Part shown: in pieces, positions 9,001-15,000 of the stretch
Position numbering within the stretch: the stretch's first letter is position 1
Layout: each line of letters begins with the position of its first letter
DNA from: Candidatus Zixiibacteriota bacterium
Lineage (GTDB): Bacteria > Zixibacteria > MSB-5A5 > CAIYYT01
Direction of reading: 5' to 3'
Assembly (NCBI GenBank): GCA_040235515.1
Contig: JBECKX010000022.1
Location: forward strand, 1-29,929
Length of the DNA: 29,929 nt
Made by a program: the position numbers

Positions 9001-12000
9001 GATAACATCATACATCCAGCTCGGAACCTTGCTGATGTTGGGATACTTGATGATCCACTTGTCGAATTGCTGACCATGCATCGCCAGGTTGCGCTTCCCG
9101 TTCACCACCCACTCGTATTCCTCATGCACGGTGATCCCGACCAGGCTCGCCATCATCTCCACCAGCAGTTCATCGTGATTACCGAGCACCCAGACTACTT
9201 CGGCGTTGCTCTCCTCGTCCGTGATCTCGCGGAAAATGCTGACCAGTTGCCACGCGTGCTTCTTCAGACGATGGAAATTCATGTCGTCGAAGATGTCGCC
9301 CAGCAGGATCAGTCGGTCAAACGCCCATTCATGCTTGCCGAGTCGATACGACTCGATCAGTCTCAGACATTCCTTGGCTCGACTCACCCGTGAGCCAAGG
9401 TGGATATCGGATACAATCAGAGTATTGATGCGCTCTGGGCGCATTGAAAATCGGTTAATCATGAACCTACTCCCAAAAGCATTCGGATAAAGATCATCAC
9501 CATTATACGAGCGATAGAACCGCGCACAAATTAAGAGTGGGTTAGTTTTGTGAAAGGAAAGGGCTAGGCCGTAAGTCGGCGTAAGCTGCTGTGCTGTATT
9601 GGCGTAAAGTAGACGGACTGAGTGATTACTCGGAATTCATGAACCACTCAGGCGCCAGGCGCTGTGTGATCGTCACAATCTCCCGGTCGGCTGGTTCCAA
9701 CGCACCGCGCTCGATCAGAGCATCAAGCGCCTTGTCCAGTACAACAGCGCGATTGTAAACCGGTATCAGGGCAGGGTAGTATTCATTGTTGAAAAACATC
9801 TGGAATTTCTCGCGCTGGCGATGGTCACTCAGCATCTCGCCGATCTTCTTTTCCAACTCCTTACCCGAGATACCCTCCAGCTCATTTTTCGGCGTTGTCA
9901 TCAAGCGCGCGGTTTTCTGATAGCTGTCGCGGCAGGTGTACTTCATCTCCCACAGATCGACCACACCGAGCGAGTTGATCACCAGCACATTCACGTAGAT
10001 ATCGCCCTTCTCTTCGTTGAATGTCACACCCTTCATTGCGGGGATGAAGTAGCTGTCGGTAATCGCACCAAATGCACTTATGCCGCCGGCGAACGGGTCT
10101 TCAACGATATCATCAACCGTGAAGTAAGGTTTGCGCTGGAAACGAGCATCCTGGATCAACATGAACTCTTCGTCATTGAAGTGGAAGCGTTCTCGCCACA
10201 GCTGTTCCGCGGAAACATCTTTGCGCGTCAGCGACGACTGGCTGGTGAGCATTCCAATCGCCTGGCCGCCGCGCCAGGTCAGGGGAAGTACGCCAACCGC
10301 CCATTCGGCCGAGCCGCCGATCTCCCCGCACATCGAACTCAAGCCGCGCTTGTCGGGGAACTCAAGCCCTTCCAGTCCCATCACCAACGCGGGCATCAGG
10401 TCGCCATCCTTGTCGTATGGCGTCGCCATTCCCGCCTTGTTGAGCGTGTCCATCGGCGGATAGTGACGTTTACGGTCGAGGAAATAGACGCTCAAATCCT
10501 CGACCCGCTTCAGTCCATAAGCCTTCGCAATGATCTCCGCCGCCTCGAGCGTATCTGTCTCACGCGGGTTGAATTCCTCAAAGAACGCACCCGAGAGCCA
10601 GCGCTGGACATAGGTGTCGGGCAGGTGACGTTTAATCCCCGATTCCGTCAGCATCAACGCGGTAAAACTCGAGTGGCTGCCCTCAACCGACTTGGTGGTG
10701 CCATCGATGACATCATTACCCATCGAGAGCAACGTCACATTGTTGGTGCGGTGCAGGCCGTAGGTTGCCTTGTGTTCCTCCTTGCCGAACAGCGCCCCGA
10801 CAGCGATCGTCGGGTTTCCACCCGCCTCCAGACCTGGCTTTACGCGAACTCCCTCCGTGATCGCCGACTCGATTATCACTTCCTCGCCAACCGGCAGGGT
10901 GTCAGTCGTCACCTGCAGCACGTCACCCATCACCTGTGCCGCCGTCCGGTCGTTAGCGCGCTTCAGGGCATTCTTGTTCTCTTTGGTGCGCTCGCTTTCC
11001 GGCAGCCTCATGTAGGCGCCGCGACCATGCATCGAAACGGCGATCGCCGACATCGCCGCAGACAGGATCACCGATTGCCGCACCTGTCTGTTTCTCAACG
11101 CCCCGAGGTTGGAATTGTAGTTCAGCTTGTCGCAATAGTTCCAGATGGTGCATGATTCAAGATCAAGTTCGTAATTCTTCAGGACCGCTTTGTGACGATG
11201 ATTGAATTCGATAATCCGGTCTTCGTCAAACCTGAATTCCGCAGGCTTGCGTGTGAATGTCAGGCGTTGATCGGCTATGTTGTAGCGTAGCTTGTTGTCA
11301 GCATTCTCCATCTTACACCACTCTTCCCATCATCAGGTGAGATTAAAGTAGATCACATGATACAATTTCCGTCACGCCAATCAAGACTTATCTCCGTGCG
11401 GTTGTTGTACCATATTTTCCGGGCTCAGGAGCCTGTCCAGATCATACTTCGACATCAAATTCTTCTCGAGAACCAGCTCATAAACGCTCCGGTTCTTCTC
11501 CAGCGCCTCCTTGGCTACCTGCGAGGCCTTCTCGTATCCCAGTTGCGGGCTCAGCGCCGTCACCAACCCGATGCTGTTGTAGACCAGGTCGCGGCAATGC
11601 TCCACATTGGCCGTGATCCCGTCCACGCAGCGGTACTTCAGCGTCGACATCCCGTTCTTCAGAACCTCGATCGACTCAAACAGGCTGTGCGCAATGATCG
11701 GCTCCATCACGTTCAGTTGCAATTGGCCCGCCTCGGCAGCCAGCGTTACGGTCAGGTCGTTTCCGATCACCTGGAACGCAATCTGGTTCACCACCTCCGG
11801 AATCACCGGGTTGACCTTGCCCGGCATGATCGATGACCCCGGCTGCATCGGCGGTAGGTTGATTTCGTTCAACCCCGCCCGCGGCCCCGACGACAACAGT
11901 CGCAAATCACTCGCAATCTTCGACAGCTTGATCGCCAGCCGCTTCACCGCCGAGGAGTACATCACGAAGGCCCCCGTATCCTGCGTCGCCTCAACCAGGT

Positions 12001-15000
12001 TCTTCGCCAGAATGATCGGCAGCCCGGTTATCTGCCGCAGGTGGTAAACCACGCGCTTGGTGTATTCCGCATCGGCATTGATCCCCGTGCCGATCGCCGT
12101 TCCCCCCAGGTTGACCTCGAGAAACAAGTTTACGTTCTGCTGCAGCCGATCGATCTCCTCTTCAAGCGTTACCGCGTATGCCTCAAACTCCTGTCCCAGG
12201 GTCATCGGTACGGCATCCTGAAGCTGGGTGCGGCCCATCTTGATGACATCCCGAAACTCTTCAGCCTTCGCGTGGAACGAGTCGATCAGGTTCGTCAACA
12301 CCTTGACCAGGCCGCGGTTCGCCAGGATCAGCGCAATTTTCAGCGCGCTCGGGTAAACATCATTGGTCGACTGGCTCAGGTTCACATGATTATTGGGATG
12401 GCAATACTCATACTCCCCCCTCTGGTGGCCCAGTATCTCGAGCGCCCGGTTCGCGATCACCTCGTTCGCATTCATATTGGTGGAGGTTCCCGCGCCACCC
12501 TGGATTACGTCAACGACGAATTGCGTGTGCCAGCGACCATTGATGATCTCCGCGCACGCCTGCACGATCGCGTCCGTTATCTCTCCCGGCAAATCCCCCG
12601 TGTCGTTGTTCGCTCGCGCGCACGCCATCTTGACCATAGCCAGCGCCCGAATCAGGGTAGGCAGGCTGGCCAGCGAGATCCCGCTGATATTGAAATTCTC
12701 CAGCGCCCGGAGGGTCTGAATCCCGTAGAGATACTCCGACGGCACCTCCCGCTCACCCAGCAGATCATGCTCGGTACGAGTCCGGCCCGAGATATATTGC
12801 GCCGCAACGTTCACGACGCGCATATCGGCCTGCCGAATCCTGCGCGATATCACTCGCGCGATCCGGGAAATCAATTTCATCCCGACCGCAGGGTTTTCTT
12901 CGCACAACCCCTGGAATTGATCGCGGCTCAGCGCGAGCAGCGTCGTCGGCTGCAGGGCGCGGGCGGACGTGTTGTGCGGATAATCATCCATCAACGCGCC
13001 TTCGCCGATGAAATCAAACCGACTGAATACGGTCAGCCTGGTTTCCTCATGGTGCGGCGTCATCTTGAACAACTCCACTTCGCCGGTGAGGACGATCCAG
13101 AGGTACTTCCGTTGCGTATTCTCCTCGAAAATCAACTCGCCGGTATTGTAGCTTCGCTCCACGAATGCCTCAGCGAATGCTCGACGCTCGGACTGAAGCA
13201 GGTCCTTGAACAGCTCGATCTGTGCTATGAATTGATCTTTCTCTGCAGTCTCCAACAGCTTGCTCCCGGGCTAGAATTATGGAGCAATATAGTAGATTCG
13301 CGGTGCCGCGCAAATGAACTGAGACACCCCGACCCGAGGTCGGCCAACACAAGATTCTTGTTGAGTCTTGCCCAAAAATCACCGATTTTCGCACAAAAGG
13401 CAGCTAGTCGTTAAAGGAGTCAACAAGTATGAGAAAACTGTCACTGCACAAGACCATTACCTTACTCCTGGCATTGGTAACTGCGACGTTGCTCAGTTGC
13501 AGTTCCAGTTCCTCAACCGATGATAACCAGCCCGCCTGTACCAGGCCACTGATGGGATTCGCATTCTATCCCGGCGTGCTACTCAGCCCCGATGCCAACA
13601 ACTACCTGACCATTTATCCCAACCACGCCGATTTGATGCTCCTCCATTTCGGTGACTCGGTGCCGTGGGAATTGCTGACACGCTGTGCCGACCTCGAAAA
13701 TTGTGCGCTCGCCGACAACGATCTCGAGGCCGCCCGCCTGGCGCTCCTCGAATTGCTTAACCAGCTCGCGCTGCACGCCACCAATTTTCCCGGTAAAGTC
13801 TATCTCTCGGTCAGCCCGCTCAACAATGATCGCGATGGCGTCGCCACCAACTGGGAGTCAGAGGCCAACCTCGGCTTCACACCGCCCGGTGATGACTTCG
13901 CCGACGACGATATCCGCGCCCTCTACCGCGCCTGGGTCAGCTTTCTCGTCGCCAAATTTAACCCCGACTACCTGTCGCAGGGCATCGAGATCAATATGTA
14001 TCTCAATGCGAATACTTCTGACTTTGCTAACCTGCTTTCCCTGATGAAGGATGTAAAAAACGACATCACTGGTGGACCGCAGGTGATCGGCCCGACGATT
14101 CAGTGGGAGTTCTACAAACGTGGCTGGGACAATCTTTCGGGATGCTGTCCGGCGCAGAAAGCACAACTCTTTACGATGATCTCCGACTGGTCCGACTATG
14201 GTGTCGGGTATGCCTTCAGCACCTATCCCGGCCTTTTCCAAACCATAGCGATAAACTACGACTTTACCACCTACGGTTTCTCGATCGGCTCCGCCCCGGT
14301 CTTCATCGCCGAATCCGGCGCCAACCCGACACAGCAGGAGACCTTGCTGACACGTCTGTTCGCAATCAAGGATGACTACAACTTGCAGGGAGTGCTCTGG
14401 TTTTTCCTCGAGGATGATGAAGCATTCTTCTCGGGCTTGCCCGATACCTACCCCTATACAGTGTTCAAGAACAACGGCCTCTTGATGGACAACGGCACGC
14501 CGAAAGCATCCTACCAGCAGTGGTTAGACAAGTTCGCCTGCGAGTTGAAGTAGGAGAACAGACATTACTGCCTGTCGGTCGTGGGGGCTCAGCATGCTGA
14601 GCCCTCTGCAAGATTTGGGGTGTGACAAGAACCCCGAATCGGCGCCAGATCGAGAGCATCTCATCCCGGACCTGACCTGGAATCCGGAGACGTCTCTAGT
14701 CGAGGTGCGTGTAGAGGAATACACACCCCGTCCTCGCTTCTTGCAAGCTCGAATCGAGTCCACCCCTCTCAAGAGGGGAACTGCGCTACAAGCCGAGGGC
14801 GTTGATCAGCTTTCCTCAGTACATAAAGGTTCATCGAATTTTGTCGTGATCATTGAATCCTGGGATGTCCTGTAGCAAAGATCCCTCCGGATATATCAAG
14901 GACATCTGCTCAACCCACAGCCAATTGTTCCTGCTCAACCTTCCTTCCAAGAGACGGTCGAGTTCACTGATAGTTTCCACAACGATTTTTCGTACCAATT

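Follow-up and report, generated by a model that had tools for sequence, protein, structure and literature searches.

Aspartases of the fumarase/aspartase superfamily are tetrameric enzymes through which the nitrogen of amino acids is linked with the pool of C4-dicarboxylates and with fumarate respiration. Known regulation of AspA in E. coli acts in trans, and includes activation by substrate and Mg and transcriptional control by CRP/FNR. In 2021, Schubert reportedly described an interaction of GlnB with this enzyme as well.

Cyclic-nucleotide-binding (CNB) domains joined to other modules have been described in several proteins. In Bd1971 of Bdellovibrio, the CNB domain and a linker helix relay the state of the sensor and gate a fused EAL phosphodiesterase (PMC6717892). 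In the Family 2B encapsulin Sg Enc, the phosphate-binding-cassette (PBC) arginine is replaced by tryptophan, and cAMP binding was disproved by experiment; the same source describes CBDs without the PBC arginine as not cAMP-responsive (PMC11550324). In PKA, Gly169 co-evolves with the PBC residue Arg209 and its position packs on the guanidinium of that arginine, while a change of arginine to lysine is described as lowering the affinity about ten-fold (Kannan 2007, PMC2246266).

Here we describe a gene in a window of 29,929 nucleotides (the whole stretch of DNA that was analysed) from Candidatus Zixiibacteriota, which joins a CNB-fold sensor to an aspartase in one polypeptide.

Gene architecture and the aspartase part

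The fusion gene lies at 11381..13255 on the minus strand as a single open reading frame of 624 aa plus stop. Translation starts at a TTG codon, and a ribosome-binding site, GGGAG, can be read from the sequence 7 nt 5' of it (13263..13267, minus strand). The start column is common to homologues, with methionine in 102 of the 116 aligned sequences among the matches listed. An earlier note had described the product as a full-length aspartase with an extra N-terminal cNMP-binding domain. This description is borne out by the one reading frame, by three Pfam domains that share it and by the assignment to the aspA equivalog. A rerun returned identical Pfam coordinates, namely cNMP_binding (PF00027) at residues 33-121 (E 4.4e-19; 68.7 bits against a gathering cut-off of 27.5), Lyase_1 at 167-498 (E 7.3e-101) and FumaraseC_C at 564-616 (E 9.2e-22). 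The last two together provide the full three-domain lyase fold.

The catalytic part comprises residues 161-624 (11384..12775, minus strand), as delimited by TIGR00839 and by the PDB aspartases 6wng, 1jsw and 1j3u, all of which match it. With the NCBIfam equivalog TIGR00839 (aspA) the fusion scores 725 bits against a cut-off of 681.2; fumC_II gives 494 bits, which is under its cut-off of 664.75. The best solved relative is the aspartase 6wng, which matches residues 160-620 at E 4e-187 and is 62% identical according to Foldseek. The SS loop, a catalytic loop that serves as signature of the superfamily, reads GSSIMPGKVNP (residues 473-483; 11807..11839, minus strand), in agreement with the signature GSSxMPxKxN and its first, catalytic serine. 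All of 75 aligned rows share G473, S474, K480 and N482, and 75 of the 80 related loci (the best 80 of 177) preserve the whole motif in frame. Judged by sequence, the fusion is a complete aspartase, with the predicted activity of converting L-aspartate to fumarate and ammonia. It is the sole aspartase of its own genome, where the other lyases are FumC and one more. The true FumC, which had already been reported as a separate gene, was confirmed on contig C184 (TIGR00979, 817.8 bits).

The sensor domain and its link to the enzyme

Residues 1-152 (12800..13255, minus strand) form a CNB-fold sensor domain according to Pfam, AF2 and Foldseek. In AF2 the layout consists of N-helices, an eight-stranded beta-roll, alphaB and alphaC; the models reach a pLDDT of 80-98 over residues 1-152, and the sensor model has a pLDDT of 83. 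A Foldseek search with this model returned the effector domains of CRP, GlxR and PKG (E 1e-11). The nearest matches by sequence or fold (PKG, PKA-R, Thermus CAP and MtbCRP) are genuine cAMP or cGMP binders, and NF041163 (49 bits), the Family 2B encapsulin model, is the top NCBIfam match of the sensor part. No HTH family appeared among the Pfam matches of the fusion protein, and the C-helix runs into the aspartase instead.

The C-helix (residues 122-152; 12800..12892, minus strand) was placed by conservation and by an AF2 helix spanning 122-143/145. Its consensus shows hydrophobic residues in a 3-4 repeat between M126 and Y154, and the helix bears an invariant basic run, R138-R139-x-R141, in a stretch whose counterpart in CRP we take to face the ligand. 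The sensor-enzyme junction QYISGRTR (residues 153-160; 12776..12799, minus strand) is near-invariant and specific to the fusion, and its consensus, QYxSGRTR, is conserved even among distant fused members. In both monomer AF2 models the junction is a low-confidence linker with a pLDDT below 50. The mean top-residue frequency is 0.96 in the junction, 0.94 in the PBC, 0.84 in the catalytic part and 0.61 in residues 1-80, and the strands flanking the PBC reach about 0.6. The conservation of PBC and junction fits a pocket that would be in use and a linker that would be coupled to it.

The sensor pocket

The PBC equivalent comprises residues 81-99, DFIGEGALMDDYPHNTSAR (12959..13015, minus strand), as defined by alignment and conservation. 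The ligand-binding residues, which the earlier note had named as a weak point of its cAMP or cGMP reading, were checked here, and both key positions depart from the canon. Where canonical domains have the arginine that holds the cyclic phosphate (CRP R82, PKA R209), the HMMER alignments to PKG and PKA-R place His94 (codon 12974..12976, minus strand). All 116 aligned members among the matches listed have this histidine, as do all 80 genome loci (the best 80 of 177). At the canonical glycine position in the beta2-beta3 loop (PKA Gly169), where canonical domains carry G, alignments place Arg49 (codon 13109..13111, minus strand), again in all 116 aligned members among the matches listed and in all 80 loci (the best 80 of 177). 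Among other CNB rows (n=378), Arg94 is accompanied by Gly49 in 190/245 and by Arg49 in 0/245, a pairing that agrees with the co-evolution of Arg209 and Gly169 (PMC2246266).

The remainder of the cassette is largely retained. Among the matches listed, G84 is found in 110 and E85 in all of the 116 aligned members, and Ser or Asn is kept at position 95; E85 is also present in 80 of 80 loci (the best 80 of 177). The polar or charged residues E85, D90, D91, H94 and S/T95-97 are retained across phyla, and the stretch DDYPHSTS gives the PBC an acidic and polar character. The distant fused members P0176, P0186, P0159 and P0146 have Tyr, Gln or Arg at position 94, the arginine being that of P0146, a fragment. 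C118, the one cysteine that the sensor contains, varies among the aligned members.

Spread of the fusion and cyclases of its hosts

A search with residues 1-165 returned 669 proteins or clusters at E<=1e-5. The fusion family of the earlier note was recovered, although the count differs from the 759 proteins obtained there with residues 1-170. The domain set given for the relatives was also reproduced, with 116 of the 120 matches listed having 612-656 aa and PF00027+PF00206+PF10415; the other four are shorter (424-556 aa, PF00027+PF00206). The fusion recurs in 177 species-representative genomes and is therefore no product of chance or assembly. All 80 loci listed of these 177 come from MAGs, and the hosts carry about nine lineage labels, including Ignavibacteria, Zixibacteria, Gemmatimonadota, Calditrichota and Planctomycetota.

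Within the class, at least 33 of 151 genomes contain the fusion. A comparison of the fused gene with unfused high-scoring AspA in these genomes, which are related and hence not independent samples, gave 33 with the fused gene, five with the unfused one (of which two reach the equivalog cut-off) and none with both. This lack of co-occurrence, together with the lyase set of the genome under study, suggests that the fusion is the working aspartase of its hosts.

The genome under study has one cyclase-like PF00211 gene (48.3 bits as protein), and 2.3 kb from it lies a CNB-histidine kinase with the canonical Gly/Arg pair. Thus, an ordinary cNMP receptor exists in this genome, and the sensor of the aspartase differs from it. 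A PF00211 match (class III cyclase) was found in 20/33 fusion genomes versus 59/118 others of the class, which is no enrichment among genomes that are related to one another. The other 13 of the 33, 12 of them at least 96% complete, gave no PF00211 match, absence here referring to MAGs searched with three Pfam models. Five of these 13 were checked further: class I cyclase (PF01295) was found in none and a CYTH domain in one, so that PF00211, class I and CYTH were all lacking in four, including the same-genus genome G053 (99% complete). No cyclase adjoined the fusion gene in 25 locus rows.

What the pocket may sense

The earlier note read the protein as an aspartase switched directly by cAMP or cGMP. 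The fused CNB-fold sensor and its conserved design hold, while the proposed signal does not sit well with His94 and Arg49. On that reading, His94 and a relocated arginine, Arg49, would hold the cyclic phosphate, with Glu85 and Ser95 in their usual roles. Histidine is capable of a hydrogen bond to phosphate, and Arg49 could give the missing guanidinium, for which it would be well placed by the packing of Gly169 on Arg209 in PKA (PMC2246266). The PF00027 score far over its cut-off points the same way, as do the retained Gly-Glu of the PBC (canonical domains use the glutamate to contact the ribose 2'-OH) and Ser/Asn95, the true cNMP binders among the top matches, the cyclase-like gene and canonical CNB kinase of the same genome, the 20/33 fusion genomes with PF00211 and the Arg94 of P0146. 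However, the arginine that defines cNMP pockets is missing in every core member aligned (116 members and 80 loci among the matches listed), and the sources cited above describe domains without it as not cAMP-responsive (PMC11550324) and even a lysine in its place as costing about ten-fold in affinity (PMC2246266). The 13/33 fusion genomes without PF00211, the four of five also without class I and CYTH, the lack of enrichment and the absence of an adjoining cyclase in the 25 locus rows weigh in the same direction. We therefore consider cAMP or cGMP an unlikely effector, and the protein should not be called the first cyclic-nucleotide-gated enzyme of the fumarase/aspartase superfamily.

It is rather improbable that the domain binds no small molecule and has a structural, oligomerisation or protein-docking role, for example by C-helix pairing that would stabilize or position the tetramer. 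The hydrophobic repeat from M126 to Y154 would suit such pairing, CRP and Bd1971 are described as dimerizing via the C-helix (PMC6717892), and ligand-free CNB homology domains are known, as in KCNH channels (cited in PMC11550324). However, conservation within the sensor peaks in the PBC (0.94 versus about 0.6 in the flanking strands), which would be unexpected of a degenerate pocket, and its polar and charged residues are kept across phyla. A CooA-like domain in which His94 ligates haem iron, so that the aspartase would answer redox state or a gas, appears very improbable. Aspartase feeds fumarate respiration, and aspA of E. coli is induced under anoxia, which would suit such a signal, as would a histidine that is invariant in the core family. 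In CooA, haem is coordinated by a conserved histidine whose place in the structure corresponds to that of Arg209 in PKA (PMC2246266). Yet Tyr, Gln or Arg at position 94 in distant members better fits a hydrogen-bond donor, the cassette is acidic and polar rather than hydrophobic, the sole cysteine C118 varies, and the closest matches are cNMP binders, with CooA absent among the matches listed.

At about even odds (roughly 0.5), we favour a ligand-gated aspartase whose effector is probably anionic and other than canonical cAMP or cGMP. Since a CNB-fold sensor is permanently attached to a full aspartase, and the design is conserved, direct allosteric control is the natural reading. The protein would be a one-piece sensor-enzyme, with an N-terminal CNB-fold (CRP/PKA-type) effector domain ahead of the sole aspartase, and its C-helix would continue through the eight-residue junction straight into the N-terminal domain of the aspartase, at its first beta-hairpin. 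By inference, the beta-roll would be occupied by a small effector that is probably anionic, candidates being a nucleoside, a nucleotide or a carboxylate-type metabolite. As is the case for other CNB modules, binding would move the PBC together with the C-helix, and this shift may tune aspartase activity or cooperativity, upwards or downwards. More tentatively, and somewhat short of even odds, the His94/Arg49 pocket may represent a new CNB ligand-specificity class, a metabolite sensor gating the sole aspartase under about nine lineage labels. If so, it would read the carbon, nitrogen or energy status from a carboxylate, a nucleoside or a nucleotide and not from a second messenger, and the fusion would be a one-protein substitute for the trans-acting control of E. 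coli AspA (GlnB, CRP/FNR).

Being the only aspartase of its hosts and present in at least 177 species genomes, uncultured among the 80 listed, the fusion marks a regulatory solution of a large and little-studied part of the FCB group and neighbouring phyla. An orphan CNB pocket with an enzyme as read-out, in which two co-evolving residues have undergone an invariant His/Arg swap, is a clean and assayable system, and its ligand would widen the known chemistry of the CNB fold. The case also advises caution against labelling such proteins 'cyclic-nucleotide regulated'. In line with the earlier note, no paper on the fusion was found in the searchable literature, nor was a sensor-domain fusion of any aspartase or fumarase-superfamily enzyme; within that literature, this may be the first account of an aspartase fused to a sensor domain.

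Comparison with known systems

The stand-alone aspartases 6wng (Elizabethkingia AspA), 1jsw (E. coli AspA) and 1j3u/3r6v (Bacillus YM55-1 AspB) align end to end with residues 160-620 of the fusion (E 4e-187 to 2.3e-148; 50-62% identity; target-normalized TM 0.86-0.90) and share its SS loop. About 460 residues of the fusion align to these solved enzymes, which have no N-terminal domain.

Bd1971, whose CNB structures (6hq2-6hq7) are among the PDB sequence matches of the sensor, likewise has an N-terminal CNB domain joined by a helix to an enzyme. In contrast to the fusion, its pocket is canonical and binds both cAMP and cGMP, its linker is a 22-residue helix rather than an invariant junction of eight residues, and it acts through a dimeric EAL domain instead of an aspartase (PMC6717892). 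The CBD of the Family 2B encapsulin (Sg Enc/EshA) is, like the sensor described here, a Pfam-positive CNB domain with the PBC arginine replaced family-wide (PMC11550324). Its replacement is Trp and its host a shell protein, whereas the sensor described here has His, keeps Gly-Glu and is joined to an enzyme.

The trypanosomatid 'cAMP-independent' PKA R subunits also have CNB domains without the PBC arginine and with another ligand, inosine by PDB title, and two of their entries, 6hyi and 6h4g, rank 42 and 46 among the structural neighbours of the sensor model. One residue that replaces the arginine in these subunits is indicated by the mutant name T318R in the title of 6h4g. They are regulators of eukaryotic kinases, unlike the fusion. 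Like the fusion, CooA has a histidine at the counterpart of Arg209 in PKA (PMC2246266). It belongs, however, to the transcription factors, carries an HTH domain and binds haem in a hydrophobic pocket, whereas the fusion lacks an HTH domain and has a polar, acidic pocket.

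Architecture of the fused aspartase

The gene at 11381..13255 (-) is a single open frame of 624 codons plus a stop, with a TTG start and a GGGAG motif 7 nt upstream of it. Pfam places cNMP_binding at residues 33-121, Lyase_1 at 167-498 and FumaraseC_C at 564-616. These are exactly the coordinates given in the earlier note, which had also described a full-length aspartase in a genome with a separate canonical FumC, and both descriptions hold. The protein passes the NCBIfam aspA equivalog TIGR00839 (725 bits against a cut-off of 681.2) and fails the fumC equivalog (494 against 664.75), while residues 160-620 align with solved aspartases (6wng, E 4e-187; E. 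coli 1jsw, E 2.8e-167). A full-length AlphaFold2 model (mean pLDDT 78) superposes on solved aspartases over ~460 residues only; the full-length Foldseek matches are confined to the aspartase portion, none of them to a solved structure with an extra N-terminal domain.

The host genome (3.59 Mb in 218 contigs, estimated to be 100% complete) contains three Lyase_1 genes, namely the fused gene, FumC on contig C184 (TIGR00979, 817.8 bits) and a further lyase on contig C171. When 151 genomes of the same class were searched with an alignment of the fused family, at least 33 carried the fused gene in full length (model positions 1 to ~620) and at least five an unfused gene scoring 635-741 bits, both counts being lower bounds as six further matches were not listed. 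The two unfused genes tested (L047 and L049) pass the aspA equivalog, and among the matches listed none of the 151 genomes holds a fused and a high-scoring unfused gene together.

Within the 33 fusion genomes, the copy in G078 is cut at a contig end and that in G104 (C14:117372-119228) lies in three adjacent, frame-shifted pieces (model positions 1-161, 160-376 and 372-619). The fused copies at loci L083 and L110 also look broken, with stops after 225 and 377 codons; sequencing errors or decay may account for these and for the G104 copy. A third kind of lyase, scoring 513-562 bits to the same alignment, occurs in many class genomes, and the nine tested qualify for the broad NF008909 subfamily but for neither of the two equivalogs, aspA and fumC. 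The same profile is seen in a widespread unfused clade of 462-495 aa (L052-L066), NF008909 being an 'aspartate ammonia-lyase' subfamily; genomes in which a lyase of this type coexists with the fused aspartase include G138, G069, G148, G144, G022 and G015.

Distribution and origin of the fusion

A search with residues 1-165 returned 669 protein clusters at E<=1e-5, and 116 of the 120 matches listed are proteins of 612-656 aa with all three domains, in agreement with the widespread fusion reported earlier. A pattern search based on an alignment of the sensor, with one genome per species, confirmed the fusion in 177 genomes and superseded a single-sequence locus search that had found only four real relatives and two weak partial matches. 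The best 80 of the 177 are all MAGs, labelled Ignavibacteria/Ignavibacteriales, Zixibacteria, Gemmatimonadota (including Longimicrobiales) and GN15, and further Calditrichaceae/Caldithrix, Phycisphaerales/Pirellulales, Acidobacteriota, Kapabacteria and a few others. In 75 of these 80 loci the sensor shares one reading frame with an undamaged catalytic signature loop (G-S-[ST]-IMPGKVNP); of the remaining five, two extend past the end of the locus, two are prematurely terminated and one is a 624-aa gene without a match to the loop pattern.

A quick maximum-likelihood tree was built from the catalytic parts of 21 unfused and 56 fused rows, the latter comprising the window's protein, every third of 115 database homologues and 16 loci. 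One branch separates all 56 fused rows from the rest, with weak support for the split (43), and their sister is the unfused AspA clade of family f13 (support 95). A single origin of the fusion would be compatible with this separation. A basal polytomy of the fused clade includes a long-branch unfused AspA-like gene of 502 aa with a hydrophobic, signal-peptide-like N-terminal extension (L051, on G004:C58); this gene may have lost its sensor secondarily, or its position may be a long-branch artefact.

Gene neighbourhood

Neighbours were examined in 25 locus rows of the fused gene. A conserved partner appears only in family f1, where a GlpX-like gene of 559-562 aa lies 3' of the aspartase in every locus examined (seven rows, two identical rows being counted once) and in no other locus examined. 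Across the 25 rows the fused gene has no cyclase, transporter or regulator as a conserved neighbour, and its surroundings therefore do not hint at the ligand.

In the window, the corresponding gene (9626-11311, -; 561 aa) follows the aspartase in the same orientation after a gap of 69 nt, in which no terminator-like site was found, and is possibly its operon partner. Its similarity to the class II FBPase GlpX is weak and partial (Pfam, 47.7 bits over residues 200-446; TIGR00330, 21 bits against a cut-off of 259). Third on the same strand is a 263-aa calcineurin-like metallophosphoesterase (8671-9462, -) without a confident subfamily, its best NCBIfam match being PdeM at 36.8 bits against a cut-off of 150; these matches do not identify it as one of the cyclic-nucleotide phosphodiesterases that this superfamily includes. 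A ClpB-type chaperone gene (15714-18275, -) also lies near the aspartase, and chaperones of this type (850-868 aa) occur one to three genes away in several otherwise unrelated contexts (the window, L029, L031 and L033), probably as a synteny remnant. The divergent 374-aa frame upstream (13429-14553, +) has no Pfam or NCBIfam match.

The sensor pocket

In HMMER alignments to PKG and PKA-R, the phosphate-binding cassette (PBC) of the family reads G84-E85-G-A-L-M-D-D-Y-P93-H94-S/N95-T-S-A-R99-A, against the canonical G-E-x-A-L-x-x-x-x-P-R-[ST/A]-A-[ST]. E85, G86, P93 and His94 are invariant in 116 full-length members (the window's protein and 115 homologues) and likewise constant in 80/80 genome loci. 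In the beta2-beta3 loop, the Gly of canonical domains is replaced at position 49 by Arg in 116/116 members and 80/80 loci. The earlier note had read the protein as gated by cAMP or cGMP and named the ligand-binding residues as a point that could refute this. A check of these residues does not bear the gating out, as the residues that define cyclic-nucleotide binding are replaced, the PBC Arg by His94 in all 116 members and all 80 loci and the Gly by Arg49.

Kannan et al. 2007 (PMC2246266) describe co-evolution of the PBC Arg (PKA Arg209) with Gly169, the C-alpha of which is packed against the Arg guanidinium. This coupling is reproduced by a background sample of 378 cNMP_binding-fold (CNB) rows, drawn from the top 150 representative matches and lacking the family's Asn46 mark, a crude split that left a few unrelated rows on the family side: where position 94 is Arg (n=245), position 49 is Gly in 190/245 rows and Arg in 0/245. 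More distant fused fragments (35-42% identical) keep the junction motif, and their residue 94 is Tyr in P0176 and P0186, Gln in P0159 and Arg in P0146.

Constraint along the protein is uneven. The mean top-residue frequency is 0.96 in the junction QYISGRTR (residues 153-160), 0.94 in the PBC (residues 81-99), 0.84 in the catalytic part, 0.79 in the C-helix and 0.61 in residues 1-80. The C-helix bears an invariant R138-R139-x-R141 run, and its consensus is hydrophobic at 126, 129, 133, 136, 140, 143, 147, 150 and 154, a 3-4 repeat from which a coiled coil may be predicted. In both AlphaFold2 models the helix ends at 143-145 and the junction falls below pLDDT 50, which would fit a segment that depends on other parts of the oligomer. 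The model of the sensor alone (pLDDT 83) most resembles effector domains of the CRP type (2pqq, Thermus CAP 4ev0, MtbCRP, GlxR) and PKG/PKA domains, with Trypanosome cAMP-independent PKA R subunits among its structural matches; in the ESM Atlas, residues 1-158 matched nothing beyond generic clusters of stand-alone CNB domains (0.93). Complex prediction for two copies of residues 1-170 in a CRP-like pairing gave a score of 0.02 and a mark of 0.42, values that speak neither for nor against such pairing. A contrast of 116 fused rows with four unfused f13 AspA sequences yielded 37 differing positions; these were rejected as fusion-specific surface residues because the unfused 6wng aspartase also has the main cluster, residues 367-380, and the contrast therefore reflects f13 divergence.

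Cyclases and other CNB proteins

The host genome has four CNB genes. Two of them, for a CRP-like regulator and a protein of 147 aa, depart from the canonical pattern in other ways, and a third, for a CNB-PAS-histidine kinase, keeps the canonical Gly/Arg pair (…EGSDGN… and GEMSLLESEPRSAS). This kinase (CNB-PAS-HisKA-HATPase) belongs to a signalling cluster on contig C94 (L004, L007), ~2.3 kb from the genome's only PF00211 gene, a class III cyclase-like protein of 424 aa (48.3 bits) followed by an AAA_16/STAND ATPase.

PF00211 matches occur in 79/151 class genomes, in 20/33 with the fusion against 59/118 of the rest, and many of those 20 matches are weak, scoring 23-40 bits and lying in proteins of ~1350 aa. 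The remaining 13 fusion genomes have none (G005, G017, G031, G032, G053, G078, G096, G106, G131, G140, G144, G148 and G150), and 12 of them are >=96% complete. Among five of these checked, none has a class I cyclase (PF01295), one has a CYTH domain and each has 3-5 CNB genes. As a sign against a cyclic nucleotide ligand, these counts are suggestive only, because the genomes are related and are MAGs.

Nature of the proposed effector

The domain architecture, the conservation pattern and the mutual exclusion of fused and unfused AspA together speak for a functional sensor, responsive to a ligand, through which the aspartase of the cell is controlled in cis; the CNB domain would respond to its ligand and act on the enzyme to which it is fused. 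We give a probability of roughly 0.5 to an effector other than a cyclic nucleotide, probably an anionic one because Arg, His and Arg residues surround the pocket. Cyclic nucleotide-binding domains without the PBC Arg are reported to bind haem, chlorophenolacetate, 2-oxoglutarate or peptides, and the domain of Sg Enc, in which this Arg is replaced by Trp, was shown experimentally not to bind cAMP (PMC11550324). The Sg Enc result and the replaced residues speak against cAMP or cGMP, which might be held here by His94 together with the relocated Arg49; we regard this as unlikely. A His at the Arg209-equivalent position ligates haem in CooA, and in PDZ-GEF, whose ligand is unclear, this position is occupied by Met or His (Kannan et al. 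2007, PMC2246266). Haem in the present domain nevertheless seems very improbable, and a purely structural role without any ligand is doubtful.

As the earlier note had stated, no paper was found that joins an aspartase to a cyclic nucleotide- or cAMP-binding domain in the openly searchable literature, that is, outside subscription journals and supplements. The sole co-mention there of 'aspartate ammonia-lyase' and 'cyclic nucleotide' is a Vibrio transcriptomics study, by its title seemingly unrelated. The fused aspartase would be analogous in principle to Bd1971, whose EAL enzyme is licensed by the CNB dimer and the linker helix fused to it (PMC6717892).
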